Below are positions 297 through 17,336 of a stretch of DNA of 64,000 nt, in pieces. The stretch lies in contig CAVVVB010000014.1 in assembly GCA_963751585.1 (NCBI GenBank), positions 81,828 to 145,827 of the forward strand. Direction: 5' to 3'. The stretch's first letter is position 1. The number at the start of each line of letters is the position of its first letter. The position numbers and the translations under genes were made by a program. The notes beneath the pieces are model-generated. The model was not told the DNA's origin. It ran no database searches and worked only from the letters and a program-made list of their open reading frames with translations. This stretch comes from an uncultured Chloroflexia bacterium. Its GTDB lineage: Bacteria > Chloroflexota > Dehalococcoidia > GIF9 > UBA5629.

Positions 297-1490
297 CTAC
301 TTGATTGTCTCAAAGACGGTATTTGGGGGGTAGATTTTCTCTACCCCCTTTCCTTCTCTGGATATGTCGGCTACCCTGATGATATCGATAGTGCATTTGT
401 CTCCGTTTACAGTGATCTTGGCGTAACCCAGAACATACTCCATACTGTTCTGATAGCCGGCAACCTTTTTTTCGTCTAGATCATAGGACGGTCCACCGCC
501 CATACCGTTAACTATATATTGGATACCGTGCGCATATATCCTTTCATAGGCGTGGATGTGCCCGTTAAACACCGCGTATACATGGTTTTGAATGAAGATA
601 TCCTCCCATAAATCCCTGAGTTGTGGATTACCCCCCCAATTCTTGGTATTCGAGCTATACAATGGATGATGGAAGAAAACAAATTTGAGCTTAGCATCAC
701 CGGCAATATCATTGCGAAGCCATTGTGTTTCAGCATCCAGGTCAGCCCAGTTATTACTGTCCATCAAGGTGAAATGGGCTTCTCCATCATCAAATGAATA
801 CCAGTCCGGGCTGCCAAAGGTCTCCTGGAAGAGCTGTTCATTCTCATCATGATTGCCGCGCACTACAAAGAGAGAAGTGCTAGCCAGCATCTTTCTGGCG
901 GCCTCAAAGAACCTGTTCCATTCATCGGGGTTGTCAGCTTGGCCGACCACGTCGCCGGTATGTATGACAAAGGATATGTCGGGCTCAGCGGCAATACGGT
1001 CGGCGACTAATCGATGTCTGTCCAGTTGAGTGAAAGTTGGTAATTGTTCCTGAGTGTCTCCGTACACGATGAATTTGTATGAGTTACCGCCCAACGTTCT
1101 GAACGTATAGTCAGGCGTGTTTTTATCTCCTATATCTACCCGGTAATGGTAGACTGTATCGGGTTGTAGCTGGACGAGATTAACGTGGTGCAGTTGCTTG
1201 TCTGTATCTGGCACACGAAGTTCGTACTGGCTTTGCCTCTTATTAGATACATTCGCAGAATATTCTACTGTGCCCTCACGTGACTCTTCGGTCTTCCAGT
1301 TTATTGTCGCCGAGGTGCTGCTGGTGTTGGTGATGTAAGGTCCCCATAACAAGGCCAGATTGTCTTCAACCGTACCCTTTTCAGTATTAACGGTCGGCTG
1401 ACAGGAGACCTGCGTAATAGCGGCTATTAAGACTACCAGGAACAAGCCGATAGTTGCCAGCCGGACTGGCTTATTCATCATCATTTCCAT
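297..1490 (-). CDS. Secreted metallophosphoesterase (purple-acid-phosphatase-like, with N-terminal FN3-like domain)
   Basis: N-terminal signal/TM (LATIGLFLVVLIAAI). Calcineurin-like phosphoesterase motifs GDTQEQ, GNHDENEQ and GHIHAYER. AAAGGA RBS before the ATG at 1490. Confidence 0.8.
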   Translation of the reverse strand: MEMMMNKPVRLATIGLFLVVLIAAITQVSCQPTVNTEKGTVEDNLALLWGPYITNTSSTSATINWKTEESREGTVEYSANVSNKRQSQYELRVPDTDKQLHHVNLVQLQPDTVYHYRVDIGDKNTPDYTFRTLGGNSYKFIVYGDTQEQLPTFTQLDRHRLVADRIAAEPDISFVIHTGDVVGQADNPDEWNRFFEAARKMLASTSLFVVRGNHDENEQLFQETFGSPDWYSFDDGEAHFTLMDSNNWADLDAETQWLRNDIAGDAKLKFVFFHHPLYSSNTKNWGGNPQLRDLWEDIFIQNHVYAVFNGHIHAYERIYAHGIQYIVNGMGGGPSYDLDEKKVAGYQNSMEYVLGYAKITVNGDKCTIDIIRVADISREGKGVEKIYPPNTVFETIK

Positions 1491-1510
1491 TTATCCTTTG
1501 CTGGTAATTA

Positions 1511-2557
1511 TCAGAAGAGATGGATCGCAGATCCTTTAAATATTACGTAAATCTGTTGGCCTTCCCGCAGACCCAATTCTTCAAAATGGCGGCGCGTGGC
1601 CAGGCAGGAAACAGCCGGCGGCAAATTTACCGTGACGAAGAGAATGGAACCCTTATTGATTATCCGAGTAATTACACCGGACAGACAATTATGTTCGCTG
1701 TCGTTGACAGGCTCGTGAGAAAGCAGGATATCTTCAGGGCGTATCGTGGCGTGCTCCATGCCGTCGGGGCTGCCGTCCAAAAGAAAATTAGCGCCGCTGG
1801 TCGCAAAAAAAGCCCGCCCGCTGGCGTTATGGACCACCTTGCCGGTGAAGATGTTCCGTGTCATGGCAAAACGGGCTACGAATTCCGAATTGGGATGGCG
1901 AAATATTTGTTCGGGCGTTCCCACCTGTTTCAATTTGCCCCCGGCGATAACGGCTATTTTATGGCCCAGTGCCACCGCCTCCTCGAAGTCGTGTGTAACG
2001 TGAATGGTGGTCATGTTCAGGTGTCGTTGAAGTTGGCGCAATTCGTCCTGTAAACCCTCGCGGGTTTCCGGGTCCAGTGAGCTGAGGGGCTCGTCTAATA
2101 GTAATACCGTAGGTTTGGTGACCAGAGCTCTGGCTAGAGCTACTTTCTGCTGTTCGCCCCCGCTTAAGGTAAGCGGTAATCGTTGAAGCAGAGGACTGAT
2201 TCCCAGGAGGCCGGTGATCCAATCAAGAGCCTCGTTTATGTCCTGCTTGCTTGTTTTGCGCAATCTCAGGCCAAAAACGATGTTCTCTTTCACGGAGAGA
2301 TGGGGAAACAGCGTTTGGTCCTGATATACGATGCCGACCCCTCTTTTTTCCGGTTCCAGATTGGTCACGTCGATATCCTTCAGCCATATCTGGCCGCCCT
2401 TGATCTGATGCAGGCCGGCGATTGACTCGAGGATGATTGTTTTACCGGCTCCGGTTGGCCCGAGGATAATGAAGTATTCGCCTTCGTTCACTTTGAGGCT
2501 GATATCGTCAATAGTGAAATTGCCCAGTTCCACTTTGAGGTTACTTATCTGTATCAT
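1511..2557 (-). CDS. wtpC: Tungstate/molybdate ABC transporter ATP-binding protein with C-terminal TOBE domain
   Basis: Walker A GPTGAGKT, ABC signature LSGGEQQKVALARAL, Walker B LLLDEP, and a ~110-aa C-terminal TOBE-like extension. Overlaps the permease gene by 4 nt (operon). Confidence 0.8.
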   Translation of the reverse strand: MIQISNLKVELGNFTIDDISLKVNEGEYFIILGPTGAGKTIILESIAGLHQIKGGQIWLKDIDVTNLEPEKRGVGIVYQDQTLFPHLSVKENIVFGLRLRKTSKQDINEALDWITGLLGISPLLQRLPLTLSGGEQQKVALARALVTKPTVLLLDEPLSSLDPETREGLQDELRQLQRHLNMTTIHVTHDFEEAVALGHKIAVIAGGKLKQVGTPEQIFRHPNSEFVARFAMTRNIFTGKVVHNASGRAFFATSGANFLLDGSPDGMEHATIRPEDILLSHEPVNDSEHNCLSGVITRIINKGSILFVTVNLPPAVSCLATRRHFEELGLREGQQIYVIFKGSAIHLF

Positions 2558-3345
2558 CTATCCTTGCCCCGGTAGGCCAGGCTTCTCAAGGTAACGAACA
2601 CGATTATGCTTATAAGAATCAGCAGGGCGGCTACTGGTCGCGCATAGTTCAAGCCGTAGGCTTCAAATCTTTCATAGAGAAGAACTGGGGCAATCATGGG
2701 GTGGTACGCCAGGATAATTACAGCACCAAATTCGCTTATGCCCCTCGCCCACATCATGATGTTGCCGGTGACGATGCTTCGCCAGGCGAGCGGCACTGAG
2801 ACTTTGGTAAAACTCTGCCAGGGTGAGGCACCCAGGGTGCGGGCCACTCTTTCCAGACGCACGTCTACCTTTTTGAAGCCATCTTTGGCTGAATTTATCA
2901 GGAAAGGTAGGCTCACAAAAAGCATGGCAATGACGATGCCCGCCGTGGAATCAACGAATTGAATACCTATGGCACCAAACATCTTCCCGACTATGAAGCT
3001 GCGCCCGAATACGAAGAGCAAGGCGATACCCGCTGCTGTATGCGGCACTACGATGGGCACGTCTATAAGCCCCTCTACAAACCTCTTTCCGGCGAAATCT
3101 GTTTTGGCCAGCACGTAGGCCAGGGGTATTCCGAACAGAAATCCTGCGGCAGTGGCTATGACTGCAGCAAATATGGTTAACTCAATGGCATTGATGACCT
3201 CGGTATCCAAGATCGTATCGAGCATTATCTTGGGATCGGAGGCTACGATCATCTTAACCAGAGGGACGATGATAAAAAGCAGGATTATCAGGCCCAGAAA
3301 GGCAAAGACAAGCGTCATTTTCTTGCTTGCGAGCCATTCTCTCAT
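2554..3345 (-). CDS. wtpB: Tungstate/molybdate ABC transporter permease
   Basis: 263 aa and polytopic, with an ABC-permease EAA-like loop (ARTLGASPWQSF). Translationally coupled to the ATPase. Confidence 0.75.
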   Translation of the reverse strand: MREWLASKKMTLVFAFLGLIILLFIIVPLVKMIVASDPKIMLDTILDTEVINAIELTIFAAVIATAAGFLFGIPLAYVLAKTDFAGKRFVEGLIDVPIVVPHTAAGIALLFVFGRSFIVGKMFGAIGIQFVDSTAGIVIAMLFVSLPFLINSAKDGFKKVDVRLERVARTLGASPWQSFTKVSVPLAWRSIVTGNIMMWARGISEFGAVIILAYHPMIAPVLLYERFEAYGLNYARPVAALLILISIIVFVTLRSLAYRGKDR

Positions 3346-3605
3346 GACGGTGCCGTCACTCCTTTAGCTCCTTCTCCCCCGATCGCATCGGGAGAGAGGT
3401 TTTCCTCCTTTTGAAAAGGAAGACTAAATCCCTCTCAATCTCCCTTTAGCGAAAGGGAGAAGTTTATCTCCCCCTTAGAAAAAGGAGGATTTGTTCAGCG
3501 GGCGCACCTGAAGGTACGCCCCTACGTTCTATACTATAGCACGCATGCACTGACAAACCCCTCTCAACCCCGATTTTATCGGGGGGGGTCAAGGGGATTT
3601 TGAAT
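3346..3605. repeat. Intergenic spacer inside the wtp operon carrying short palindromic repeats (CCCCCTT-loop-AAGGGGG type and CCCGAT-loop-ATCGGG type)
   Basis: Hairpin-forming motifs visible directly: ctcccccttagaaaaaggagg, cccgatcgcatcggg, ccccgattttatcgggggggg. The same motif family occurs at 32940-33420, 37440-37570 and 48086-48420. Confidence 0.6.
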
Positions 3606-4688
3606 TTACTGCACTATGGCGGCTATCTCCGGAGGCACTTGGGCCTTATTGTAGGCTATCGGCGGCGTTATACTGGGCTGATACGATTCAGCTAATATGC
3701 GCTGGCCTTCGGGGCCGAACAGAAACAGGAGAAACTGTATGGCTTCTTTGGGGTTCTGGGCGTTTCGGGGGATAGTGACGCCATATAATATGGGTTGGCC
3801 CTCAAAATCAGGGGCAATCGAGGCAAATCTCTGAAAATCGAGCTTAACCCTTACGTGACTATAATTGTCGGCGAATTCATCGGAGCTGAGGTCGATTTCC
3901 GACGGCAGTTCCAGGAAGTTCAAACCAGTCTGCCTGGCCACGCTCTCGTATTCAAAAGCGTAGTCAATGTCATGGGATTGCAGCAGGGCCAGCGTTTGTA
4001 TACTGTACGGCCTCATAACTACCTTGTTGTTAACGGGTTTTACTATTTCGGATACAGAAATTGCATAGGAGCCGTCAGTCGCCGAGACGCTTATGCTCTT
4101 TCCGAAGTTGTCGCCGATCAGCTTCTGGAAAATGGTACTATCGCCGTAATAGCCTTGAGCCAGCTGCACACACATAAGAGCCCTGTATCCCAGAGAATCG
4201 AAACGTGGGTCCGATATTCCGAGCTTGACGTCGGGACGCGACAAAATTGCGCACCAGTTCTGCGCATCTATTTCCGAGCTGTATTGGCTCTGGGGCGTAT
4301 AAGCGATGCCCAGCTTATTCCTGGCAAAGACTACGTACCAGTCCGCGTAAGGGCCTCGATTGTCCGGCATTTGCGCGTTGTACATCATGGCAGGTATGAG
4401 AGAATGATCAGCTACCGCTGCCACATCCACTTCATCATGCAAGTCCGTGATCTGCCGGATTACCTGCACGCTGCCGTGGCCCTCTATCAATACGTCTACA
4501 TCTGGGTGCCCGCTTTCAAACTCTTTCTCAATCTCTGTGAACGGCACCATCAGGCTGCCGGCATTGAAAACCTTTAATTTGATACTTCTTTGCCCTTCAA
4601 AGGCACAGGCATTTGAACTAGCTAGCAAGAGCGGGGCAATAATAGCCACTAAAAAGTAGAATATGACTTCTTTTCTTTTGACCGACAT
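3606..4688 (-). CDS. wtpA: Tungstate/molybdate ABC transporter substrate-binding protein, WtpA type
   Basis: Signal peptide. Strong similarity in pattern to the archaeal-type WtpA family (KVFNAGSL..PF.E.EKEFE..HP.VDV..E..GS....R.I..L...DV.A.AD..LIP..M, CGYRALMCVQLAQ). Confidence 0.75.
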   Translation of the reverse strand: MSVKRKEVIFYFLVAIIAPLLLASSNACAFEGQRSIKLKVFNAGSLMVPFTEIEKEFESGHPDVDVLIEGHGSVQVIRQITDLHDEVDVAAVADHSLIPAMMYNAQMPDNRGPYADWYVVFARNKLGIAYTPQSQYSSEIDAQNWCAILSRPDVKLGISDPRFDSLGYRALMCVQLAQGYYGDSTIFQKLIGDNFGKSISVSATDGSYAISVSEIVKPVNNKVVMRPYSIQTLALLQSHDIDYAFEYESVARQTGLNFLELPSEIDLSSDEFADNYSHVRVKLDFQRFASIAPDFEGQPILYGVTIPRNAQNPKEAIQFLLFLFGPEGQRILAESYQPSITPPIAYNKAQVPPEIAAIVQ

Positions 4689-4740
4689 GTAATGTGTCTC
4701 GACTACATTATTGTTTTGGAGTTATGACTTCTATTTTGTT

Positions 4741-5010
4741 TACCCACTTGACCCAGTGAAGCCCCTCGGTTAACAAAGGTTCGTCACCGAGGATAGCCAG
4801 CCGCAACGGCTTGCCGTAATCTTGGGTAAGCGCCTTGCCATCCTGTTCGTAGGCCAGGACCAGCCTCAGTTGCCCGTGGGTACCTCCTTCATTGTTTTAG
4901 GATCGTAAGTATTAAACTCTCCGTGAACCTGGTCATAGTCGAATATTGCCGAGTACCCATCGGTGGCCGACACCAGTACGGCATTTGAAGGCGTTAGCCC
5001 GCCGACAAGC
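4741..5010 (-). pseudogene. Degenerate or frame-broken second SUOX-fold-like domain continuing paralog A (two frame changes and one in-frame stop)
   Basis: Reverse-strand translation in shifted frames gives MLEDLCELVGGLTPSNAVLVSATDGYSAIFDYDQVHGEF...KEVPTGN, then LRLVLAYEQDGKALTQDYGKPLRLAILGDEPLLTEGLHWVKWVNKIEVI. This matches the family domain and the YedY/MsrP C-terminal motif GxPLRLxxPG..G...VKW...IEV. Confidence 0.5.
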
Positions 5011-6168
5011 TCACATAAGTCCTCGAGCATCGCGCCTCTCATCCGGGAAAGGTCCGTTTATGACACCGGCCGTGGTGAAGAATCCACCGGTCCCTTCATA
5101 TGCGGGCATTTCTCTGATGGCGTCGTAGCTGACCTTATTTTCTTTACCGTTGTTCCCGATGATGGTAACGTCCCAGGCAATGTTCGGATTGCTGGCTTGC
5201 GGCACATAAAAATAGACGGCCAGCGATGTTATAACGCATAGTACACCGGCCACGAGCAGGACAATGGCTCTGATATCAATCTTACCTGGTCTGGTTCTGA
5301 AACCTTTTTGCCTGATGACCAGATATATGCCCAGGCCCAGTAGAATTACCGCCAGAGCTCCTAGGGCAATCGGATCCCAGCGGTTATCGTTTGCAGGCTG
5401 GCCCTGTCCTTTTTCAACTGCCAGATTCTTGGGTACGCCTCCGGTATATATTCTGACCTCGGTAATCCATTTGCCCGAGAGCCCATTGGTGCTGGGAAAA
5501 CCTTCGTAGAAATGCTGGTATTTCTCCTGCGGCATGCAGACTTTCATGTCGGAGTTGCCGAATACGTATTGCCCCTCGGCGTTGGTCGTCCTGGGCATGA
5601 GCACCACCTGAATCGCCGTGCTATAGGCGTCACTGCCGGGGTAGCCGACACCGTAAGTTTCGCCAAATTTGGCATCTTCACCGTTATACCAGCACAAGGT
5701 AATCATCCCCTGCCTGTCCAGAGGCTCGTAGACATTGGGATAGGCGAAACTCTCCTGCCAGCCGTCAACAGCCACAATCATTACTTCGTCACCTGGTGAC
5801 ATACCACCGACCAGTTCACAGATATCTTTGATATTGGTACCTTTTACGGCTCCTTTGTCCTTGAGATTTGTCGTTTCCAGGGGGTCCCACATGTCTCCCT
5901 CGAACACGGGGCCCTGAAGGTAATAGTGTGTGTGGCCGTCTCCCTGCACCGGAAGATTCTTTTCCAACCACTGGTAAGTGACGGTCTTTTCGCCCAGTAT
6001 CTTAGTGCCATCCTTATCATATTTAACTATGTGTAATGAGCTGGTGGCGCCTGCCGCCTGTACCGGCGGCAATAGCGCGACCGAAATCGCTATACTGAGC
6101 AACAGGAGGACGCATATGACGCCAAGCTGGATCGGCTTTACGTACTTGTGGCCCTGCAATACGTTCAA
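5011..6168 (-). CDS. Paralog A of membrane-anchored protein family: N-terminal SUOX-fold-like (MsrP/YedY-like, Cys-less) domain, two TM helices, then start of a second domain copy
   Basis: Family motifs present: LPVQGDG, KDICELVGGMSPGDEV, AVDGW..F.YPNVY, ITLCWYNGED, QYVFGN, SGKWITEVRIY. Two hydrophobic helices (IALGALAVILLGLGIYLVI; AIVLLVAGVLCVITSLAVYFYV). Start codon is uncertain (TTG at 6168, no strong RBS). Confidence 0.6.
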   Translation of the reverse strand: MNVLQGHKYVKPIQLGVICVLLLLSIAISVALLPPVQAAGATSSLHIVKYDKDGTKILGEKTVTYQWLEKNLPVQGDGHTHYYLQGPVFEGDMWDPLETTNLKDKGAVKGTNIKDICELVGGMSPGDEVMIVAVDGWQESFAYPNVYEPLDRQGMITLCWYNGEDAKFGETYGVGYPGSDAYSTAIQVVLMPRTTNAEGQYVFGNSDMKVCMPQEKYQHFYEGFPSTNGLSGKWITEVRIYTGGVPKNLAVEKGQGQPANDNRWDPIALGALAVILLGLGIYLVIRQKGFRTRPGKIDIRAIVLLVAGVLCVITSLAVYFYVPQASNPNIAWDVTIIGNNGKENKVSYDAIREMPAYEGTGGFFTTAGVINGPFPDERRDARGLM

Positions 6169-6201
6169 TTTACTTGTCCAGTTTATTCGTTAACTGCTGT
6201 A

Positions 6202-7734
6202 TTAGCCACGCCGTCTTAAAAGAGCTACCAGAATGATGACTATGGCTGCGATTACCACAGCTATGGCCAATATTATGTACCACTGTATTGGCTGAGGCGG
6301 TTTTTCCGGTTTCGGAGTATTGGCACTATTCACCGGAGGCGCCGTCTTGATTTGTGCCTTTTGAATGAATTTGGCGGTAACAGTCTTGGCAGCATCCATA
6401 GTCACTGTGGTGGATGCCGAGCTAGGGTCGGCGATGCCGCTGCCGGTCCAGCCGGCAAACTGCCAGCCGCTGGCTGCAGTCGCCGTAATTTTGACCACGG
6501 TATCCTGGGCATAGGAATGATTTCCCGATGACGGTGTGATAGTGCCGCTGCCGTTTGTTGCCATGGTCAGTTTGTAATTCGTGGCGGCTGCCTGTTGTGT
6601 AAACTTAGCGGTTACGGTCCTGGCAGCGTCCACGGTAACCGTGGTGGCTGCCGATTTAGGGTCAGCGATGCCAGTGCCTGTCCATCCGGAGAACTGCCAG
6701 CCGCTGGCTGGGGTGGCGGTGATATCGACCACGGCCCCCTGGGCATAAGAATGGCTGCCTGATGACGGTGCGATAGTGCCGCTGCCGCTTACTGACATGG
6801 TCAGGTCGTAATTGTTAGCCGCTGCTTGCTGGGTAAAGTTGGCGGTAACGGTCTTGGCAGCGTCTATGGTCACCGTAGTAGATGCCGAGCTAGGGTCGGC
6901 GATGCCAGTGCCTGTCCATTCGGAGAACTGCCAGCCGCTGGCTGGGGTGGCGGTGATATCGACCACCGCCCCCTGCGTACAGGAATGGCTACCGGCTGCT
7001 GGTGTGATAGTGCCGCTGCCGCCCACTGACATGGTCAGGCTATAGCCTGCCGCCTGGTTGCTGTGAATATTTATCTGATTTACGTTCTTTACGGATAATC
7101 CGGTGGTAGTGGGATATTGCGTCCCGTCGGAAACGTAATAATGCCACCGGTTAGAAGGTAAATATTCATGCTCGTCCCAGTTGCCGAAAACATACTGACC
7201 GGCCGAGTTTGTAGTCTGGGCAAAGAATACCAGGCGTATACCATCTCCCCATGCCGGCACGTATTGCCCGTTATACCACCAGCAAAGGACCATCTTTCCC
7301 TGCTCAGGGTGTGGCGTATAGACGTTAGGGTAATCGAATGTCTTTTTGAAATTATCTACGGCCTTAACATCGACGGTATCCCCGGGAGACATGCCGCCTA
7401 CTAGCTCACACAGGTCTTTTAGGTCGGTGCCTTTATTGGCGCCCCAATCTTTGACATTGACCGTCTCGCTGGGATCCCACAGATTATTTGTGTCAAAGGT
7501 GGGACCCTGAAGGTATTGGTGGGTGGTGCCGTCACCCTGTACCGGCAGCGTGGACTCTAAGGTTTTAGAGTCAACGGTTTTTTGATTAATTACAGTGGTG
7601 CCATCGTTGGCATACTTGGTTACGGTAATTGATGTGGTGCCGTCTGCCAGCACCGGAGTCACGGACATGATACCGAGAACAGATGCCAGCAATATCAGAA
7701 GGCCGAGCATAGCTCGTTTCATCGGCTTAACCAT
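6202..7734 (-). CDS. Paralog B: signal peptide, SUOX-fold-like domain, 3 x ~93-aa InlB-B-repeat-like domains (GW motif), Pro-rich linker, C-terminal TM anchor with RRRG tail
   Basis: AGGAGGTG RBS 8 nt before the ATG at 7734 (MVKPMKRAML). Repeats YxLTMSV.GSGTI.P..GSHSYAQGAVVDITATPASGWQFSGWTGTGIADP appear three times. C-terminal WYIILAIAVVIAAIVIILVALLRRRG. Confidence 0.7.
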   Translation of the reverse strand: MVKPMKRAMLGLLILLASVLGIMSVTPVLADGTTSITVTKYANDGTTVINQKTVDSKTLESTLPVQGDGTTHQYLQGPTFDTNNLWDPSETVNVKDWGANKGTDLKDLCELVGGMSPGDTVDVKAVDNFKKTFDYPNVYTPHPEQGKMVLCWWYNGQYVPAWGDGIRLVFFAQTTNSAGQYVFGNWDEHEYLPSNRWHYYVSDGTQYPTTTGLSVKNVNQINIHSNQAAGYSLTMSVGGSGTITPAAGSHSCTQGAVVDITATPASGWQFSEWTGTGIADPSSASTTVTIDAAKTVTANFTQQAAANNYDLTMSVSGSGTIAPSSGSHSYAQGAVVDITATPASGWQFSGWTGTGIADPKSAATTVTVDAARTVTAKFTQQAAATNYKLTMATNGSGTITPSSGNHSYAQDTVVKITATAASGWQFAGWTGSGIADPSSASTTVTMDAAKTVTAKFIQKAQIKTAPPVNSANTPKPEKPPQPIQWYIILAIAVVIAAIVIILVALLRRRG

Positions 7735-7833
7735 TTGTATCCACCTCCTAGAAAGCCAAGCTGTAGAGACAGTGAAAAAGAGCCCCATCGATAGTCCCAT
7801 ATTTTCACTGAGTAACCTCCTTCTGTAATCTAC

Positions 7834-10533
7834 TTATTGAATGGTAAAGTCAGCACCGCTAGTACCGAAGACGGTCGTGGTGGTGACGCTGGCCACTTTT
7901 ATCCTGGCTGTACCGGTGGCAGGCCCGGTTACCGTCCAGGAGTAGGTACCGTCGAGAGCCGGCACACCGCCCCTGGGGGTGATGGCTAACCAGGAACGGC
8001 CACTGTTTCTGGAGATATAGATATTGACGTTGCCGGCGAGGTGGTCAGAAATCCAGGTTATGTACAGGAGCTGGCCGACTGACGCGGTCTCACCGCCGTT
8101 CGGATAGGTGACGGTGATGTTACCGCCGGAGATGGTAAAGTCAGTATCGCTGGCATCGAAGACGGTGGTTATATCGGCCCTGGCGATTTTGACTTTGGCC
8201 TGGGTGCTGGTTGGCGTGGTTGCGGTCCAGGAGTAAGTGCCGGAGTTGGGTATACCGCCACGTGGGGTGATGGCTATCCAGGAACGGCCATCGTTTCTGG
8301 AGATGTAGATGTTGACGTTGCTGGGGACGTGGTCGGAGCTCCAGTTTATATAGAGAGGCTCGCCGATGTAGGCGATTTCACCGCCGTTGGGGCTATAAAC
8401 GGTAATGGTGCCGGCTGAGATGTTAAAGTCGTTGGCGCTGGCACCGAAGACGGTGGAGATATCGACCCTGGCGATTTTGACTTTGGCCAGGATGGTGGTC
8501 GGTATGGTTGGGGTCCAGGAGTAAGTGCCGGAGTTGGGAACACCGCCCCTGGGGGTGATGGCTATCCAGGAACGGCCATCGTTTCTGGAGATGTAGATGT
8601 TGACGTTGCTGGGGACATGGTCGGAGATCCAGTTTATATAGAGAGGCTCGCCGATGTAGGCGATCTCGCCGCCGTTGGGGCTATAAACGGTAATGGTGCC
8701 GGCTGAGATGTTAAAGTCGTTGGCGCTGGCACCGAAGACGGTCGTGGTGGTGACGCTGGCCACCTTTATCCGGGCTGTGGCTGATGGCAGCCCGGTTACC
8801 GTCCAGGAGTAGGTACCGGAGTTGGGAACACCGCCCCTGGGGGTGATGGCTAGCCAGGATTTACCGCTATTTCTGGAGACATAGATATTGACCATGGCGT
8901 CGCTGGGGACGTGGTCTGAGGTCCAGTTTATATAGAGAGACTCGCCGATGTAGGCGATCTCGCCGCCGTTGGGGCTATAAACGGTAATGGTGCCGGCTGA
9001 GATGTTAAAGTCGTTGGCGCTGGCACCGAAGACGGTCGTGGTGGTGACGCTGGCCACCTTTATCCGGGCTGTGGCTGATGGCAGCCCGGTTACCGTCCAG
9101 GAGTAGGTACCGGAGTTGGGAACACCGCCCCTGGGGGTGATGGCTAGCCAGGATTTACCGCTATTTCTGGAGACATAGATATTGACCATGGCGTCGCTGG
9201 GGACGTGGTCTGAGGTCCAGTTTATATAGAGAGACTCGCCGATGTAGGCGATCTCGCCGCCGTTGGGGCTATAAACGGTAATGGTGCCGGCTGAGATGTT
9301 AAAGTCGTTGGCGCTGGCACCGAAGACGGTCGTGGTGGTGACGCTGGCCACCTTTATGCGGGCCGTACCAGAAGCTGGCCCGGTTACCGTCCAGGAGTAG
9401 GTGCCGGTGTTGTCGACACCGCCGCTGGGGGTAATAGCTGTCCATGAGGTGCCGCTGTTTCTGGAAATATAGATATTGACGTTGCCGGCCACATGGTCTG
9501 AGGTCCAGTTTATATAGAGAGACTCGCCGACGTAGGCGATCTCGCCGCCGTTGGGGCTATAAACGGTAATGGTGCCGGCTGAGATGTTAAAGTCAGCGTC
9601 GCTGGTATCGAAGATGGCGGGGGCATCAGCCCTGGCGATCTTGACTCTGGCCTGGGTGCTGGCTGGCCCGGTTACCGTCCAGGAGTATGAGCTGTCGCTG
9701 GCAGGTACACCGCCGCTGGGGGTGATGGCTGTCCATGAAGTGCCGCTGTTCCTGGAGATATAGATATTAACGTTGCTGGTAACCGTGGAAGGGTTCCAGG
9801 TTATGTTCAGAGGCTCACCGACGTAGGCGGTCTCACCGCCGTTCGGGGAAAGAACGGTCACGTTAGCGGCTTTATATATGTTTATCTGGCTCAGGGTATA
9901 ACCCGATAGGCCGGTAGTGGTGGGATATTGGTTATCAAAATAGTACCATCGATTTGAGGGAAAACAGTCATGCTCGTCCTGGTTGCCAAAGACATACTGA
10001 CCGAGGGAATTTTTGGTTTGGGCAAAGAAAAACAGTCGCAGGCCGTCTACCCAGGTGGGCACGTACTGCCCGTCATTCCACCAGCAGATAACCATCTTCC
10101 CTTGCCGGGGCTGCGGCGTATAGACGTTGGGATAGTCGAAGGTATAGTTCCAGCCATCTATGGCACTGATTTTCACTGTATCCCCCGGGGACATGCCGCC
10201 CACCAGGTTACACAGGTCCTTGAGGTCGGTCCCCTTGCAGGCACCATAGTCTTTAATATTGACCGTCTCGCTGGGATCCCACAAATTATTAAGGTCGAAT
10301 GTTGGCCCCTGCAGCATATAGTGGGTGACGCCGTCACCCTGCACCGGCATGGACTCCATGGTGGTATAGTCAATGGTCGTTTGGCCTAGCACAGTGACTC
10401 CATCGCTGTCGTACTTGGTTATGGTTATCGACGTAGTGCCGTCTGCCAGTACCGGAGTGGCAGTTATTACACCGACAATAGATGCCAGCAATATCAGAAT
10501 GCCAAGCACGGCTCGATTCATCGATTTAACCAT
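7834..10533 (-). CDS. Paralog C: signal peptide, SUOX-fold-like domain, about 8 tandem ~95-aa beta-sandwich repeats with BNR/Asp-box-like SRNSGxSW motif; candidate S-layer or surface protein
   Basis: AGGAGGTG RBS before the ATG at 10533 (MVKSMNRAVLG). Signal cleavage is probably after VLA. Repeats ITVYSPNGGEIAYIGESLYINWTSDHVP..VNIYxSRNSGKSWLAITPRGGVPNSGTYSWTVTG..ARIKVA occur about 8 times, two copies identical at DNA level. Confidence 0.7.
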   Translation of the reverse strand: MVKSMNRAVLGILILLASIVGVITATPVLADGTTSITITKYDSDGVTVLGQTTIDYTTMESMPVQGDGVTHYMLQGPTFDLNNLWDPSETVNIKDYGACKGTDLKDLCNLVGGMSPGDTVKISAIDGWNYTFDYPNVYTPQPRQGKMVICWWNDGQYVPTWVDGLRLFFFAQTKNSLGQYVFGNQDEHDCFPSNRWYYFDNQYPTTTGLSGYTLSQINIYKAANVTVLSPNGGETAYVGEPLNITWNPSTVTSNVNIYISRNSGTSWTAITPSGGVPASDSSYSWTVTGPASTQARVKIARADAPAIFDTSDADFNISAGTITVYSPNGGEIAYVGESLYINWTSDHVAGNVNIYISRNSGTSWTAITPSGGVDNTGTYSWTVTGPASGTARIKVASVTTTTVFGASANDFNISAGTITVYSPNGGEIAYIGESLYINWTSDHVPSDAMVNIYVSRNSGKSWLAITPRGGVPNSGTYSWTVTGLPSATARIKVASVTTTTVFGASANDFNISAGTITVYSPNGGEIAYIGESLYINWTSDHVPSDAMVNIYVSRNSGKSWLAITPRGGVPNSGTYSWTVTGLPSATARIKVASVTTTTVFGASANDFNISAGTITVYSPNGGEIAYIGEPLYINWISDHVPSNVNIYISRNDGRSWIAITPRGGVPNSGTYSWTPTIPTTILAKVKIARVDISTVFGASANDFNISAGTITVYSPNGGEIAYIGEPLYINWSSDHVPSNVNIYISRNDGRSWIAITPRGGIPNSGTYSWTATTPTSTQAKVKIARADITTVFDASDTDFTISGGNITVTYPNGGETASVGQLLYITWISDHLAGNVNIYISRNSGRSWLAITPRGGVPALDGTYSWTVTGPATGTARIKVASVTTTTVFGTSGADFTIQ
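7900..9870. repeat. Coding tandem repeat array in paralog C, period 285-288 bp, about 8 copies, two adjacent copies 100% identical
   Basis: Visible by direct comparison: ~8735-9022 is essentially identical to ~9023-9310. The copy at 8284-8460 is very similar to 8569-8750. Confidence 0.8.
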
Positions 10534-10631
10534 CAAATCCACCTCCTATAAAATCCAAACTACAGAGGCAGTGAAATGGGGACGTATCGTTAGCCCCCAT
10601 CTCACTGGTGGCCTCTTTTCCTGGAATCTCT

Positions 10632-13600
10632 TTATTGGATACTAAAGTTAGCATCGCTGGCATCGAATACGGTAGTGATATCGGTCCTGGCGACCTTTAC
10701 TTTTGCCGTGGTGGAGGCTGGCTTGGTTACCAGCCAGGAATAGGTGCCGGTGTTGGCCGGTACACCGCCACGGGAGGTGATGGCGGTCCATGATAGGCCG
10801 CCGTTTCTGGAGATATAGATATTGACATTGACGTTGCCGGGAACGTGATCGGAAGTCCAGGTTATGTTGTCGCTCTCGCCAATGTGCCAGGTTTCGTAGC
10901 CATTCGGGGCAGTGACCGTAATGGTACCGCCTGAGATGGTAAAGCTAGCACCGGTACCGTAGACGGTGGCCATATCGGCCCTGGCAACCTTGACTTTGGC
11001 CGTGGCAGCGGTGGTAACTGGCGTCTTTACCAGCCAGGCGTAGGTGCCGGTGTTGGCCACACCGCCGGCTGGAGTGATAGCAGTCCATGATAGGCCGCCG
11101 TTTCTGGAGACATAGATGTTGACATTGCTGGGAACATGGGAGGAAGTCCAGGTTATGTTGTCGCTCTCGCCGATGTACCAGGTATCGCCGTTACTGGGGG
11201 TATCAACGGTAATGGTGCCGCCTGAGATGGTAAAGCTATCACTGGTAGTGTAGACGGTGGCCATATCGGCCCTGGCAATCTTGATCTTGGCCGTGGCAGC
11301 GGTGGTAACTGGCGTCTTTACCAGCCAGGCGTAGGTGCCGGTGTTGGCCACACCGCCGGCTGGAGTGATAGCAGTCCATGATAGGCCGCCGTTTCTGGAG
11401 ATATAGATGTTAAGCTTGCTGGGAACATGGGAGGAAGTCCAGGTTATGTTGTCGCTCTCGCCGATGTACCAGGTATCGCCGTTACTGGGGGTATCAACGG
11501 TAATGGTGCCGCCAGAGATGGTAAAGCTATCACTGGTAGCGTAGACGGTGGCGATATCGGCCCTGGCAATCTTGATCTTGGCCTGGGTAGCAACCGGCGT
11601 AGTTACCAGCCAGGAATATAAGCTGGTGTTGGGCACACCGCCCCTGGGGGTGATGGCGGTCCATGATAGGCCGCCGTTTCTGGAGATATAGATGTTAACA
11701 TTGCTGGGAACATGGGAGGAAGTCCAGGTTATATTGTCGCTCTCGCCGACGTACCAGGTATCGCCGTTACTGGGGGTATCAACGGTAATGGTACCGGCTG
11801 AGATGGTAAAGTCAGCGTCGCTGGTATCGAAGACGATGGGCATGGAGATGCTGGCCACCTTGATCCGGGCTGTAGCCGTAACCGGCGTGGTTACCAGCCA
11901 GGAGTAGCTGCCGGTGTTGGGGGCACCGCCGCGGGGGCTGATGGCGGTCCAGGATTTACCGCTGTTTCTGGATATGTAGATATTGACGTTGCCGGTGACG
12001 CCGGTCGTACTCCAGGTTATGTTCTCGCTCTCACCGATATAGGCGGTCTCGCCGCCGTTTGGGGAAGTAACCTCGACTGGTAGATTGACCGCAAAGCTGG
12101 CGCTGATTGTATGTTTGTCGGTAACATGGTGAAACGTGTAACTGGTTACCGCGCCCTCGGATTGGCCATCGACGAGCACATTGGCGACATGGCAGCCGGG
12201 ATCCGGGGCGATGTCGAATGACTTGTCTGCATCGTAGGCAACCAGTACGTCGCCGTCTGGTGTTATGGAGCCGTGAGCACCGGCGCTGGCAGTAATCGTG
12301 GGAGGCAGGTCGGTCAGCGCGATGCTGGTAATGTTGGATATCGACATAACTCCGGTAACAGCCGAGCCCACCAGTGTGGGAGGGTAAGTGGGGGGAAGGA
12401 CGGGCCAGGGTAAGTGGGAGGGAGGGCCGGTCCGTCTGTAGGTCCAGCAACCAGGATATTTTTCTTCTGGGGCCGGCTACGAAACTGCTGTCAAAAGTGT
12501 AGTTATCGCTATCGCTGGAAACGGTAACCGTATACCCTAGTTCGGCCATTTGGTCGTTGAAGGCGCCCTGGCCGTGGGTGATGCTGTCATCAACAAAGCC
12601 ACAGATCAGGTACAGCGGCAGACCTTCCCAGGTGCTGCTGCCATCCCAGTACTGAATGCCGTGCTCACAGATGACGCCGTCTTCGAACTCGGCTTGAGTC
12701 AGAGTGTGATCGACGGCGCCGGAAAGCTGTATGTGCCATGTGTCTATGGGTGGCACACCAACCAGCTCTATCCTGGCGACGTTGCCGATCATCTGGTCGT
12801 CGGTTAATCCCTCGCCGACCAGCTTGAGCGGGTAATCCGGGCGCGGACAGCTGCTGGCCGTTCTCGGTATTGGCCACGATTATATTAGCGTTTCTGGCCA
12901 CGTCTTGACTGGCAAGGTCGGAGGTGGTGCCATTGTCTGAAGTTAGTCTGACCGTGTAGCCGGCACGAGCCAGGGCATCGTTGAAAGCACCTACCCCGAG
13001 GTGATTATTAGCGTCATCGGCCCAGCCGCAGAGCAGCCACAGGGGCATGCCTTTCCAGATATTGTGGCTGGCATCTGTCCACGTTTTGCCGTGGTTAGCG
13101 TCCGAGCAAACGACCCCATTCTCGAACAGGCTCTCGGTTATGTTGTCGCTATAGGGGCCAACCAATTGTAATGACCACGGCTGCAGATTCTTATATATGT
13201 TGACTGCAGTAATCCACTTGATCGAAAGCCCGTCGCACGACGGATACCCATCGTTGTAATGCCAGTTGGCCTGGGGCAGGTAATGCCCCATGTCCCAGTC
13301 CCCGAAGACGTATAGGCCGGCAGCGTTGGGTGCCGGCGCCATGAAAACAAGCTGCATGCCTTCTTCGAACGCGGGGACAGATGCGCCGTCAGGGTAAAGG
13401 GGCGCGCCCAGGTTCTGCCCGGCGTTCCTGGTATACCAGCAGATGACCATCTTTCCTTGGTTCGGATCCAGATCATAGATATTGGTGTACTGGAAGCGTT
13501 CGCCGTAGCCGTCGGCGGCCAGGATCTGTATTTGATCGCCGGGATCGGCACCGCCGACCAATTCGCATAGATCCTTAACATCCGTCCCCTTGACGGCGCC

Positions 13601-13900
13601 CTTGTCCTTAAGTTCCGCTGTAACGTTCTCCGAGGGGTCCCACGGATTGTTGGGGTCATATGTAGGCCCTTCCATATAGTAGTGCCTGATCCCATCACCC
13701 TGAACTGGTAAGGTCATCATGTCCTGGTAGGTCTTAATCGTGGTGGCCAATACTGTAGTGCCATCAACGTTATATTTGGTCACTGTTAATGAGGTTGTAG
13801 GTGGTGCGTCTGCTGACGCAGGCACTGGCCTAACCCCGCCGGTAACCAGCCCGGCCAGCAGGGCCAGGCAGAATACGATGCCGACTATCCTCGATTTCAT
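10632..13900 (-). pseudogene. Paralog D: ~1090-aa surface protein (signal peptide, SUOX-fold-like domain, duplicated ~110-aa module, Pro-rich linker, InlB-B-repeat-like domain, 5 x ~94-aa BNR-like repeats) read in three frames. Either frame-broken or two consensus indels.
   Basis: AAGGAGTG RBS before the ATG at 13900 (MKSRIVGIVFCLALLAG). Frame changes near 12830-12850 (…LSAPG then PDYPLKLVGEGLTDDQMIGNVARIEL in the +1 frame) and near 12385-12480 (C6/G6 homopolymer at 12390-12395 inside a pyrimidine-rich Pro-linker). Track ORFs 12665..13945, 12031..12792 and 10632..12371 are consecutive pieces. Confidence 0.55.
10700..12020. repeat. Coding tandem repeats in paralog D, period about 282 bp, 5 copies
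   Basis: Repeated protein unit ITVDTPSNGDTWYIGESDNITWTSSHVPSNVNIYISRNGGLSWTAITP.GGV.NTGTY.WLV.TPV. Adjacent copies are near-identical at DNA level (e.g. 11040-11320 vs 11320-11600). Confidence 0.75.
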
Positions 13901-14154
13901 CTGTTCACTCCTTACGAGGCAACCGTTGTCTCCAGCCGGCGGCAATAAACGTACCGGGCGGGTGCCCGGCTGACGATATATGCGGAATGCGCATCCTGCC
14001 GGATGCCCCGCACCGATACATTAACCTCGCCTCTCATTTCACCAAAAGTCCACACACGCGCAAAGCATGTCGGCTCGCCTGATGGGGCGAGGCAACTCAG
14101 TTAGCTGCCTGGCGCGTATGTCGCTACAAAGCGCCTGGACGCTGAATAGTCCAA

Positions 14155-15465
14155 TCACAGAACAGAGAAGGCATTCGTTAGTGTGATAGTGACTCCTCCA
14201 CATGTCACTGAAACATCTCTGGTTCCGAGGCCAGCATTGGGCTTAACTGTAATGTGGACTGTTATGTTTGTGGAAGTGGCCGTGAATCCGTCTACGGTTA
14301 TCCCGGTGCCAAAACTGACTGCGGTGGTACGGCTGAGATTTTTCCCAGTGATGGTTACAGTCATCCCCTTGCCCCGAAGGCCCATCGCCGGCTTCACCGA
14401 AGACAAGCTGGGACCTGTGGTAAAGGAGGCGGCTATGGTGTGGTTGGCGGTAACGTTGGAGAATGTGTAACTGGTCACCGCACCCACCGACCTGCCATCC
14501 ACCAGCACGTTGGAGACCTGGTAGCCGGCTGCCGGCGTGATGGTGAAGGTCTGGTTAGTTCCCTGGTCGACCGACACGGCACCGGAAGGGGATATCGAGC
14601 CGCTGAGACCTGCAGTGGCGGTGATGACGTGGAATTGAACGAAGGTGGCGGCCAGGGTGTGGTTAGCGATTACGTTGCTGAAAGTGTAGGTGATGGCTGG
14701 AGTCACAGAGCCTCCATCTATAGTCAAAGTGGCGACACGATAACCTGCAGCCGGGGTGATATTGAATGTCTGGCTGCCGTTGTAAGTGACAGGCACCGTA
14801 CCAGGGGGAGATGCGCCGGTCCAGGGGTTGGTGTTAGGGGACCCACTGGACCATGTGTAGGACGCAGCTGAAATGGTACCATGGGTGGGGGCGGTAGCAA
14901 CCGCAACGGTATACACCAGCTTGATATCGTGAACGTTGTTGTTATAGTATTTGCTTGCAGGAAGAGAAGGACAAACCAATCTTGGCAGGTTTGTCGTATC
15001 CGGGGTGGTCGGCGGATTGGTCGTGTCTTTATATCCGCTATCGGCAATAATGAGGCTATTGTTACCTTTAACAGCTATGTTCATAGCGGCAGGTCCAACA
15101 ATGTTAGGCCCAACAAGAACCGTGTACGGGTTCGCCGAATTATCTAATACCAGGGCACTATAACCTGACATTCCGCTTACGCCAGTAAGTTGCTCCAGAA
15201 GCCGATAAACCGGTACGCCGGTATAGGAATAGTAATTGGTGGTGCCGCCGCCGCTCGTGTATGTGCCGTTATCAGTTTGGCTGTAGCTAGCCTTCAGATT
15301 GTTCCACGTGGTGGTATCTATGGTGACACTGGTAGAGCCGAGCCATACTGTAATGGGTGGATAGCCCGACCCTGCCGCCACAGGTAGCGCCGTGACTAAC
15401 AAAGCGCCTACAATAGCCAACGTGAACAGAACACCAAATATACTTTTGCGATTAAATCCTTTCAA
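14155..15465 (-). CDS. Paralog E: signal peptide, divergent SUOX-fold-like domain, InlB-B-repeat-like domains, C-terminal IPT/TIG-like domain
   Basis: Signal peptide with AAGSGYPP. YTGVPVYRLLEQLTGV…SGYSALVLDNSANPYT…NLPRLVCPSLPASKYYNNNVHDIKLVY parallels the YedY layout. Repeats …GY.V..L.IDG.SV……YTFSNV.ANHT..A.F appear twice, then a TIG-like segment (MTVTITGKNLS…VSFG). Confidence 0.6.
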   Translation of the reverse strand: MKGFNRKSIFGVLFTLAIVGALLVTALPVAAGSGYPPITVWLGSTSVTIDTTTWNNLKASYSQTDNGTYTSGGGTTNYYSYTGVPVYRLLEQLTGVSGMSGYSALVLDNSANPYTVLVGPNIVGPAAMNIAVKGNNSLIIADSGYKDTTNPPTTPDTTNLPRLVCPSLPASKYYNNNVHDIKLVYTVAVATAPTHGTISAASYTWSSGSPNTNPWTGASPPGTVPVTYNGSQTFNITPAAGYRVATLTIDGGSVTPAITYTFSNVIANHTLAATFVQFHVITATAGLSGSISPSGAVSVDQGTNQTFTITPAAGYQVSNVLVDGRSVGAVTSYTFSNVTANHTIAASFTTGPSLSSVKPAMGLRGKGMTVTITGKNLSRTTAVSFGTGITVDGFTATSTNITVHITVKPNAGLGTRDVSVTCGGVTITLTNAFSVL

Positions 15466-15837
15466 TTGTTTCCTCCTTCGATGTTTGTTGGATAATGTTT
15501 TAGGTCAATTGGTAGGCTAACTATTTCTTGTCTCTAATCACCTCCCTTGGCCAAACCGCATCCGGTCAAAGCGGCCGTTGCCGATTCGGTCTGAGTATAT
15601 TGGGGCCGGAGTTGCCTGAATGGAGGTGGATAAGGAGATGTTAAAAGGGAAGGACGGACAAGAAATAGAGAGTGTTGGTCATTATTCCAATTACCGCTCC
15701 TGTTGGAAAAACTATACATGTTATCTCCTTTCCAAGAATGGGAGGTATCACCTTTTCAGGTGATGCCCTACGGGCCTTTCTTCCTGGGATCACCCTTTAG
15801 AAGATAAGACTCGGAGATCGAATATGCCTGGCTATAT

Positions 15838-17041
15838 TTAATTCAAGAAGGACGTGTTACCCGTTTCCCCGGTATCGTAACCGCCGATCTTGGTAACCGA
15901 ATCCTTGAAATCATTGCTGTGGACGATCTCCAGAAGAGACGCCATGAGCGGGCTATCATATTTTGCCGTCGGCATTACCAGGTCATACCTCTCGCGGAAC
16001 AAGGGCAGAAAATCAATTTCGCAGGCACGAGCCGCTGCCTCGATGCCTAAACCGACGTCACCCTGGCCCCTGGCTATGCTGACCGCTACCGCCATGTGTG
16101 TGCTCAGTTCATGTTCGTAACCGTTGACCTCAGACGGTAGTATTCCGTGCCGCCTTAGCTCCTGATCGAGAAGGACACGCGTGCCCGAACCTTTCTGTCG
16201 GTTGACGAAGATAAGGTCATGACGCTTCAGGTCTTCTATGCCCTTGATTCCCTTAGGGTTATGTGGGAGCGAACATTAGCCCCTGTATGCGGTAAGCCAG
16301 GTGAACGATGGTTATTTTCTGACCGGGAAACAAGCGTTTCACGTAGGGATAGTTATACTCCATTGTCTCTTCGTCCAGGAGATGAATTCCGGCCAGGTCG
16401 GCTCTGTCTTCTTGAAGAGCAATGAGACCACCCAGGCTGCCGGCGTGGGTAATTTCGATATTGATCTCCGGATTTTGGCGTCTGAGCTGGTCAACCAAAA
16501 GATTGAGAGCCAAATCATGGCTGCCTACTATGGATATGGTATTCTGGCCGTTAGCCCTGGCGAGTTTATGGCCCGATGCCTCTTCGCCGCCGCTTTTCCG
16601 CTCCTCGTACCAGCGCGCCAGATGAAGGTAAAAAGTTGCCTCGAGTTCCCGGGGGCTATATCCTAAACTCAAAACTCCCAGGATATTATCGCTAACAATA
16701 TTGTCCAGACGCTTCTGACGCAGCGTTAACATCTGCGGGTCGGTGGAGCTGGCGGACACTATAGTGCCGCCGCCGCGCCGTGAAACTATCACTCGGTCCT
16801 GTTCCAGCTCCAGATAAGCTCTAACTACCGTACCCGGATTGATGCCTAAGTTTTGGGCTAGCTGTCTAACCGTGGGCAGGTGGTCCCCGGGCTGAAGCTG
16901 GCCGGTGGCGATAGATTGCTTGACTTGCTCTACTATCTGCTTGTATAGCGTCGTTGACGCACTCTGGTCAATGTTCACCGCCAATATTCCTTTATCCCAC
17001 AGTGATTTTTTGTACGACTTGTACGGGCGCAATTGTAACAA
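15838..17041 (-). CDS. Transcriptional regulator: GntR-family HTH fused to PBP_like (COG1910-type molybdate/tungstate-binding) domain; one frame break near 16262-16275
   Basis: N-terminal HLPTVRQLAQNLGINPGTVVRAYLELEQDRVIVSRRGGGTIV. C-terminal ISIVGSHDLALNLL…GSLGGLIALQEDRADLAGIHLLDEETMEYNYP, continuing in the +1 frame as NPKGIKGIEDLKRHDLIFVNRQKGSGTRVLLDQEL…THMAVAVSIARGQGDVGLGIEAAARACEIDFLPLFRERYDLVMP. Track ORFs 16259..17041 and 15838..16095 are the pieces. Confidence 0.6.
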
Positions 17042-17336
17042 TGGAATTTACAATTTGTCAAGACATGAAATCTTCTGGATAAGAATCGAGATCGCCACGT
17101 CGCCCGATAGTCTGGGCCCTCGCGATGACGTAAGGGGCGATCTTTTCTTAAGTATTATTTGGGCATGAACGGCCTGATAGAAGCTCATGTAGCGGGTGAT
17201 ACGTGGAAAACATTGTTAAACGTCATTGCGAGCCCCTATGCAATCGGGGCGTGGCAATCTATACCCGGTGACCAACGTTGGCCTTTGCTGAGATCGCGAC
17301 GTCCCCCGATACATCGGGGTCCACGCGATGACATTA
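17042..17336. repeat. Intergenic array of ~45-bp palindromic units (GAGATyGCCACG-hairpin-CTCGCrATGAC) in both orientations
   Basis: Examples: cgagatcgccacgtcgcccgatagtctgggccctcgcgatgacg; cgtcattgcgagcccctatgcaatcggggcgtggcaatct; agatcgcgacgtcccccgatacatcggggtccacgcgatgac. The same family occurs at 33100-33220 and 48270-48400. Confidence 0.65.

Follow-up and report, generated by a model that had tools for sequence, protein, structure and literature searches.

Cysteine-less sulfite oxidase-fold surface proteins, a phosphoesterase and a WtpABC-type importer in a conserved, riboswitch-headed gene cluster with a likely role in tungsten acquisition

Why would proteins resembling molybdenum cofactor-binding domains be displayed on the cell surface beside a tungstate/molybdate importer? 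The question is raised by a locus at positions 297-17041 of a 64-kb stretch (hereafter the window, to which all coordinates refer) of contig CAVVVB010000014.1, from an uncultured Chloroflexia bacterium. Every large open reading frame (ORF) listed for this locus lies on the minus strand, as do all its features described below; this agrees with the original prediction, made from the sequence of the window, that it forms a single-strand locus. The order on that strand is a regulator with GntR and PBP-like domains, a molybdenum or tungsten cofactor (Moco/Tuco) riboswitch, the surface proteins E, D, C, B and A, WtpA, WtpB, WtpC and a metallophosphoesterase (MPE). The cluster is a conserved unit, headed by a cofactor riboswitch, which combines Cys-less proteins of sulfite oxidase (SUOX) fold with a phosphoesterase and an oxyanion-type ABC importer. 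We consider it likely that it works as a single transcription unit of ~15.5 kb, repressed by the cofactor, for the extracytoplasmic acquisition of tungsten and possibly molybdenum.

The original prediction had connected the surface proteins to Mo/W through their genomic context, and the conservation of this context was examined from both ends. A one-genome-per-species scan identified 363 relatives of the N-domain, the N-terminal domain of ~196 aa shared by paralogs A to D, and 75 of the loci were fetched and their gene content established by tblastn with the window proteins; because 15 of the 75 are shorter than 6 kb, the counts are lower bounds. WtpA was present in 50 of these loci, almost always co-directional with the N-domain gene, MPE in 37, and WtpB/WtpC in about 35; the recurrent, co-directional order is (giant N-C-C-C-N-C protein)-N-MPE-N-S-WtpA-WtpB-WtpC, where C and S designate two further types of SUOX-like domain. 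The bacterial carriers are Dehalococcoidia, Anaerolineales, Syntrophomonas, Peptococcaceae and Moorellaceae, and the archaeal ones Methanomicrobiales, Methanosarcinales/ANME, Argoarchaeum and Bathyarchaeia, all of them groups known as strict anaerobes of methanogenic or sulfidic settings. Cultured representatives among them are Methanosphaerula subterraneus (L065), Methanocalculus taiwanensis (L069), Moorellaceae AZ2 (L004) and Peptococcaceae SCADC1_2_3 (L032). The N family has 664 cluster representatives at E<=1e-3, a number that falls to 350 at E<=1e-30, and some of its members have four N copies in more than 3000 residues.

The reciprocal test started from the variant subclass of WtpA that is described below and covered 80 metagenome loci, 63 of which had at least 600 nt upstream and were usable. 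A SUOX-like gene was found within ~1 kb upstream of the variant WtpA in all 63: in 54 loci an S (40) or C (14) domain ends 450 nt or less upstream, and the remaining nine have an S-C gene within ~1 kb. Common in the metagenomes is a reduced architecture, [S-C]-WtpA-WtpB-WtpC, with neither N nor MPE in the fetched flanks (loci L081, L104, L115, L118, L139-L142, L145, L148, L151 and L153). Considering that there are one to three wtpA genes per 2-3 Mb genome, adjacency within 10 kb would be expected by chance in a few percent of cases at most, and chance adjacency is ruled out by the two-way neighbourhood tests, together with the gene fusions and the riboswitch. ORF clusters 4, 6 and 8 of the neighbourhood analysis were left out as shadow ORFs on the antisense strand. 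Linkage to wtp genes thus recurs whether the search is seeded with the N-domain or with WtpA. Pointing the same way, and beyond what had been predicted, are a riboswitch without P3 stem, which heads the cluster here and in 17 out of 28 loci from bacteria, as well as genes for a TupA-like binding protein (PF12849) in eight loci and a Mop/TOBE molbindin in five, so that the Mo/W link of the surface family is stronger than the original prediction could show.

The riboswitch of the window, at 15709-15828, was identified by cmscan as a full-length aptamer of family RF01055 (model positions 1-135; 71.4 bits against a gathering score of 36, E 3e-15), and is the sole Rfam match in the 64 kb. It begins 10 nt past the stop codon of the regulator, upstream of gene E and on the coding strand, inside a 372-nt gap (15466-15837) that is the exception to the short gaps that had been predicted, the others being 19-260 nt by coordinate arithmetic. 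The P3 hairpin (model positions ~59-73) is deleted in the cmscan alignment and, because of this absence, the riboswitch is assigned to the putative tungsten-cofactor type. Regulski et al. (2008, PMC2408646) showed that the Escherichia coli Moco RNA is a cofactor-dependent OFF switch, and found a nearly perfect correlation between the lack of P3 and tungsten-cofactor metabolism. Alignment of 26 related aptamers showed that 23 lack P3, which is present only in three Anaerolineales copies. In locus L005 the riboswitch follows the regulator exactly as in the window, and in L002 it precedes wtpB. Tandem P3-less aptamers occur in front of the clusters in L001 (86-420), L007 (9464-9798), L013 (2954-3252), L014 (9365-9753), L042 (5693-6017) and L044 (7086-7468), and a triple P3-less aptamer in L038 (9062-9688), suggesting a steep, digital response to the level of cofactor. 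In the window, the 3′ strand of P1 reads AAAGGAG, resembling a Shine-Dalgarno sequence; 5 nt beyond it comes the start codon AUG of an ORF of 61 codons (15534-15719), which could be a leader ORF or the expression platform, and gene E has its own strong Shine-Dalgarno sequence 243 nt further on.

The importer had been predicted to be of the WtpA type, and this holds for its substrate-binding protein WtpA (3606-4688), which passes the equivalog cutoff of TIGR03730 (318.8 bits against 242.75), just misses a second model (NF003196, 338.6 against 355), and can be aligned over its full length to two WtpA/ModA proteins of known structure, MA_0280 (E 2e-78) and AF_0094 (E 1e-74). The permease WtpB (2554-3345) and the ATPase WtpC (1511-2557; Pfam ABC_tran and a C-terminal TOBE) score below the equivalog cutoffs of NF040839 (321 bits against 340) and NF040840 (393 bits against 440), which are still by far their best-scoring models. 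Comparison of the cluster-linked WtpA proteins with AF_0094 (PDB 2onk), whose ligand identities and numbering we take to be those of the A. fulgidus structure papers (Hollenstein et al.), shows that they keep the AGS, GS and Tyr motifs of the anion site and the Asp ligand (LDxxGYR). They do not have the pair of carboxylate ligands (Asp and Glu) that gives octahedral coordination of the oxyanion: the motif EGHGS[IV]Q (EGHGSVQ in the window) replaces the canonical E[AS]AGSA, with an invariant Ser at the position of the AF_0094 Glu ligand and no Glu at +2. In the window the His and Ser concerned are His71 and Ser229. Judging from these motifs, the linked WtpA proteins are a distinct subclass with a predicted altered metal site. 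Some loci also have canonical WtpA copies; in L001, L002 and L007 such a copy stands behind wtpC within the operon, and a single permease is therefore probably supplied by both subclasses there. The spacer between wtpA and wtpB in the window (3346-3605) is unusually long, 260 nt, and contains many short hairpins; it had no Rfam match, nor was a second riboswitch found there as at that position in L002, and it may set the ratio of substrate-binding protein to permease.

Immediately upstream of wtpA is paralog A, at a distance of 19 nt and not the 50 bp first proposed, as its reading frame can be followed across two frameshifts to the end of a second SUOX domain at 4708. Protein A (4708-6168) thus contains an N-domain (5416-6099), two transmembrane (TM) helices and a short canonical SUOX domain, S (4720-5175). 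Protein B (6202-7800) has a signal peptide, an N-domain (6955-7698), three Flg_new_2 repeats and a C-terminal TM anchor, and protein C (7834-10542) a signal peptide, an N-domain (9853-10497) and ~8 tandem repeats of ~97 aa, two adjacent copies of which are identical at the protein level, pointing to a recent duplication or to repeat mis-assembly. Protein D (10632-13945) is one gene in three ORF pieces, whose N-domain (13169-13867) is followed by two SUOX-like C domains (12827-13180 and 12472-12741) and Ig-like repeats, as found by a six-frame scan with hidden Markov models (HMM). Protein E (14155-15465) has a signal peptide, an orphan N-terminal domain, and Flg_new_2 and TIG Ig-like domains (Pfam). 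The six-frame HMM scan found no SUOX-like N, S or C domains in the 64-kb window outside 4720-13867.

Domain S, of ~150 aa and shorter than N, is elsewhere mostly a separate, TM-anchored gene of ~190 aa directly upstream of wtpA. It matches PF00174 (Oxidored_molyb) above the gathering score (homolog L013_8448_9035, 48.7 bits against 24), as does an S/C-domain protein of L012 (67.6 bits), and a profile of S retrieved from the PDB plant sulfite oxidase 1ogp (E 1.9e-6) as well as SoxC (E ~2e-6). The N-domain had no match in Pfam or NCBIfam, and a profile of 51 N-domains found nothing relevant among PDB sequences. However, an AlphaFold2 model built with 51 homologs (pLDDT 97.3, pTM 0.92) gave Foldseek results consistent with a SUOX fold, and N and S are related in sequence (30% identity over 158 aa, E 1e-9 by tblastn), N having an insertion of ~25 residues. 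This predicted fold and the tblastn link to S are the reasons for assigning the modeled N-domain to the SUOX fold. The third type, C, has two copies in protein D and up to five per protein elsewhere. The prediction that the surface proteins are SUOX-like therefore stands for A to D, from the fold model and the HMM scan, and could not be confirmed for E, whose N-terminal domain has no homologs in our search, aligned to the N, S and C profiles with hhalign probabilities of 0.6-4.2%, and yielded a low-confidence single-sequence AlphaFold2 model (pLDDT 39.8). Several NCBI records of N-domain proteins (P0004, P0018 and P0057) bear the name argininosuccinate synthase, which looks like a propagated mis-annotation because neither sequence nor fold supports it.

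One role considered for such domains was that of a Moco-loaded redox enzyme. A conserved Cys where the Mo ligand would be is lacking in all three domain types. The 26 S domains share no invariant Cys, the position expected for the Mo ligand varying among F, C, S, A and G; this position was located by means of motifs and a single, weak HMM alignment to SoxC. The sole near-invariant Cys of the N-domain falls in the DLCxLVGG helix. Additionally, the signal peptides of A to D do not show, on inspection by eye, the twin-arginine motif of the Tat pathway. A Moco-loaded redox enzyme is thus rejected and, for the same reasons, N, S and C are Sec-exported, Cys-less SUOX-fold domains that resemble PruR, a secreted, Cys-less SUOX-fold protein which has a Trp in the place of the Cys and binds a small pterin (PMC11194511). 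The earlier suggestion of a redox-inactive scaffold is compatible with the absence of a conserved Mo-ligand Cys. Among the motifs conserved in S are DGY and WVKW, with a consensus GGFF, and N has the consensus GDGxTHYY. C domains from Methanosarcinales (L012, 1365-3173; L035, 2040-3896) carry CxxCH, the heme c attachment signature, in the sequence FESCVGCHG, with a weak match to Pfam Cytochrom_C; there is none at that place in protein D of the window.

The last gene (297-1490) codes for a secreted or lipid-anchored MPE with the Pfam domains Metallophos and Pur_ac_phosph_N (PF00149 at 1e-17 and PF16656 at 1.6e-11), whose best PDB matches are purple acid phosphatases (PAPs). The metal-ligand motifs GD, GD, GNH, H and HxH are conserved in 31 MPE homologs, while the chromophore Tyr of true PAPs (motif GDxxY) is lacking, the window sequence reading HTGDVVGQ. 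Six proteins are single-ORF fusions of N-domain and MPE. The MPE is consequently a core, sometimes fused, member of the cluster, more than just its last gene.

At the other end, the regulator (15838-17041) is preceded by a promoter-like site at 17032-17061 (TTGACA-18-TACAAT with TG, 11/12 in a consensus scan, a pattern match only). As had been proposed, it joins a GntR winged helix-turn-helix domain (PF00392, 62.8 bits, 2.4e-17) to a PBP-like domain of COG1910 type, which matches PF12727 (80.4 bits, 1.2e-22, profile positions 2-77, the remainder being recovered past a frameshift); its C-terminal piece matches positions 563-643 of NF011068. The PBP-like domain is not, as first thought, of the ModE (TOBE) type, but the one that serves as sensor in TaoR, a regulator already characterised, which controls a tungsten aldehyde oxidoreductase (PMC11980592), and it is also found fused to MoeA (PMC10102598; NF011068). 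The placing of the surface genes between a putative oxyanion-sensing regulator and an oxyanion importer, to which the original prediction gave much weight, is real in the window; however, among the 75 loci the regulator accompanies the surface family in only three others, all of Chloroflexota, and its link is thus lineage-specific.

Taken together, these data suggest a plausible way for the cluster to work. With sufficient tungsten cofactor the cluster would be off, and scarcity would raise its expression, the P3-less riboswitch acting as cofactor sensor and the GntR/PBP-like regulator, in this lineage, as a probable sensor of oxyanion. The Sec-exported surface proteins would present one to several Cys-less SUOX domains (N, C, S) on Ig-like stalks, capturing a W/Mo-containing ligand at the cell surface and passing it inward; the extracellular, presumably binuclear MPE would process the captured ligand, and the membrane-anchored S domain would hand the oxyanion to the variant WtpA for import. 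As for what is captured, we tentatively favour a metal bound to a pterin phosphate, that is, released W/Mo cofactor, its dinucleotide forms or breakdown products, because the only ligands of the SUOX fold known to us are pyranopterin and pterins, and because only a species of this kind gives the co-conserved, sometimes fused MPE a substrate. Somewhat more doubtful is that this amounts to the salvage of extracellular cofactor, in which the stalked domains would capture pyranopterin-bound W/Mo from other cells and relay it across the envelope as NEAT domains do with heme, the phosphoesterase would strip phosphate or nucleotide, and the specialised WtpA would take over the metal. If so, prokaryotes would for the first time be seen to acquire W/Mo at the level of the cofactor, and the sulfite oxidase fold would have a new, non-catalytic role.

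Several points weigh against acquisition through these domains as outlined above. The N-domain matches neither Pfam nor the sequence of any solved structure, and the Mo-ligand site was judged by motifs and a weak HMM alignment. Both the binding of ligand by the domains and the activity of the MPE are predictions from sequence; as PAP sites bind tungstate as an inhibitor (PDB 3kbp), the MPE could act by binding and not as an enzyme. The importer seems adapted to a small oxyanion, for which no pterin-binding fold is needed, and free cofactor in sediments is chemically labile. Archaeal loci have no riboswitch. Lastly, the window contains five frameshifts, so this particular copy could be defective, though a close relative suggests assembly error.

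Another reading is a direct antenna for the oxyanion, in which the SUOX domains, perhaps with the dimetal site of the MPE, would bind free tungstate or molybdate without a pterin, concentrate it on the outside of the cell and deliver it to the variant WtpA; the chemistry of the phosphoesterase would then be irrelevant or secondary. We regard this as possible, capture of free tungstate being nearly as likely as that of pterin-phosphate-bound metal. Importer and substrate-binding protein keep the motifs of an oxyanion site, the membrane-anchored S is encoded immediately beside the binding protein, and the large number of copies, held out on long stalks, would be of use where the solution is very dilute; besides, the active site of sulfite oxidase is an anion pocket and the dimetal sites of PAPs accept tungstate. 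Nevertheless, proteins of the WtpA type already bind tungstate with extreme affinity, making the gain unclear, and an antenna neither accounts for the co-conservation and fusion of a complete phosphoesterase nor agrees with pterins being the only known ligands of the fold.

The putatively altered site of the variant WtpA bears on an improbable reading, the mobilisation of thiolated or mineral-bound W/Mo. Both metals are present in sulfidic habitats as thio-anions or bound to sulfide phases; in this reading the MPE would hydrolyse thio-oxyanions as phosphate analogues and the binding protein, with Glu changed to Ser plus a His, would take a softer or larger anion, much as CysP takes thiosulfate beside Sbp. 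The loss of a hard carboxylate ligand with the gain of an invariant His would fit, as would the sharing of one permease by two WtpA subclasses in three loci and the methanogenic or sulfidic settings of the strictly anaerobic carrier groups. But the idea is purely one of analogy and gives the SUOX-fold domains no specific role, and we know of no metallophosphoesterase that hydrolyses thiometalates.

The closest structural relative of the domains, PruR, is a signalling protein (PMC11194511), and the Ig repeats of the surface proteins are adhesin-like, which would agree with their serving another purpose (PruR-like pterin signalling, adhesion or envelope functions) and being merely co-transcribed with the importer. 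This is rendered still less probable by the near-universal adjacency to the binding protein in both directions of the test, across bacteria and archaea, by the position of the riboswitch directly in front of the surface genes themselves, and by the absence of a partner of DcpA type. The acquisition of W, and possibly Mo, hence remains the reading that we prefer.

The integrity of this copy deserves separate comment. Its five frameshifts within 17 kb affect the regulator, D and the S domain, with single-base indels near ~16270 (regulator), ~12400-12850 (D), and ~5046 and ~4873 (S). The regulator is one gene with a single frameshift at 16269-16271, since tblastn with an intact homolog of 382 aa (L005_7660_8808) aligned 16978-16271 (53% identity) and 16269-15844 (58%) in adjacent frames, and ORFs 10632-12371, 12031-12792 and 12665-13945 are frameshift-broken parts of gene D. 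A syntenic relative (L157, ENA contig_95351), with the same gene order and 83-93% nucleotide identity, has its frameshifts in other genes, B, WtpC and MPE; comparison of the regulator regions of both showed 20 gap openings in 1.6 kb, and in an independent Logan contig the encoded WtpB is identical and the WtpC and MPE genes behind it are intact. Such a distribution of indels is what unpolished long-read assemblies typically show and, because the relative is frameshifted in different genes, the indels of the window are most likely assembly errors and not marks of pseudogenes. A decaying pseudogene array, although suggested by five frameshifts in 17 kb, is therefore the least probable of all the readings, considering the different genes hit in the relative, the density of gaps in the regulator region and the intact genes in the Logan contig.

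Elsewhere in the window, a sample of 20 large ORFs codes for ordinary anaerobic metabolism and includes no other Mo/W protein. The locus is flanked by genes for a CocE/NonD-family hydrolase (17337-19178, minus strand) and a nitroreductase (19464-20222, plus strand), which are syntenic in L157 and lie outside the module, because none of the other 75 loci has them. A further ORF with Flg_new_2 (InlB B-repeat) domains like those of B and E, but with no N, S or C domain, is located close to the opposite end of the 64 kb (62503-63513, plus strand).

W/Mo enzymes, among them formate dehydrogenase, formylmethanofuran dehydrogenase and aldehyde oxidoreductases, set a limit to syntrophy, methanogenesis and the anaerobic oxidation of alkanes, and how strict anaerobes acquire trace W/Mo in sulfidic habitats is poorly understood. 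The cluster supplies specific candidates that are conserved from Dehalococcoidia to ANME and amount to at least 350 protein clusters at E<=1e-30. It also sets apart a WtpA subclass with a putatively changed metal site, and lends itself naturally to examining whether Moco riboswitches without P3 sense the tungsten cofactor, an old idea that is still unproven. We found no description of the cluster, of the variant WtpA subclass or of the N/S/C surface proteins in searches of full-text literature; importer, riboswitch and fold were already known, whereas their combination and the accessory module seem to be new.

With respect to known systems, two likenesses concern logic, with no homology, and are not evidence. 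In the Isd/NEAT heme relay, starvation-induced surface proteins sharing one ligand-binding fold feed an ABC importer dependent on a substrate-binding protein, as might happen here, and the Pho-regulon phosphatase with PstSCAB would be comparable as an extracellular esterase coupled to an oxyanion importer. With the regulator TaoR (HTH_17 and PBP-like domains) ours shares a cytoplasmic PF12727 domain joined to a DNA-binding domain beside W-related genes; its DNA-binding domain is GntR and not HTH_17, and the regulator accompanies this cluster in only four loci, all of Chloroflexota and the window included. As in the known Moco/Tuco regulon (PMC2408646), the aptamer is full length and lies on the coding strand upstream of Mo/W genes, but in the related loci the aptamer often stands two or three times in tandem, and surface SUOX-fold proteins and an MPE have not been reported as regulon members in the searchable literature.

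The importer is the same three-gene system (binding protein, permease, and ATPase with TOBE) as WtpABC, known from Pyrococcus furiosus WtpA and the structures of A. fulgidus AF_0094 and M. acetivorans MA_0280, from which it differs in that its binding protein is a separate subclass, always paired with an upstream SUOX-like gene in the reciprocal test, and its WtpB and WtpC score just under the equivalog cutoffs. With the SUOX molybdoenzymes (sulfite oxidase, SorA, SoxC and YedY/MsrP; PF00174) the surface domains share the fold of the Moco-binding domain, but they have no conserved Cys ligand, their signals are of Sec and not Tat type (by eye), and they lack dimerisation and heme domains, the CxxCH of some ANME/Methanosarcinales C domains being the one exception. 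The closest structural relative is PruR (PDB 7kp2, 7kom and 7rkb), likewise a secreted, Cys-less SUOX fold. The cluster domains differ from it in lacking the PW motif and, in the case of N, in the ~25-residue insertion and extra C-terminal strands; they are multi-copy and surface-anchored, beside a W/Mo importer and a phosphoesterase instead of a DcpA-type c-di-GMP enzyme, no DcpA-like gene of a pruR-dcpA operon being found in the window or the loci; and their hosts are archaea and anaerobic bacteria outside Proteobacteria. The pterin of PruR lies between Y104 and W160, of which the DGY and WVKW motifs conserved in S are putative structural equivalents, and the surface proteins of this cluster would form, beside PruR, a second Cys-less, non-enzymatic branch of the sulfite oxidase fold.

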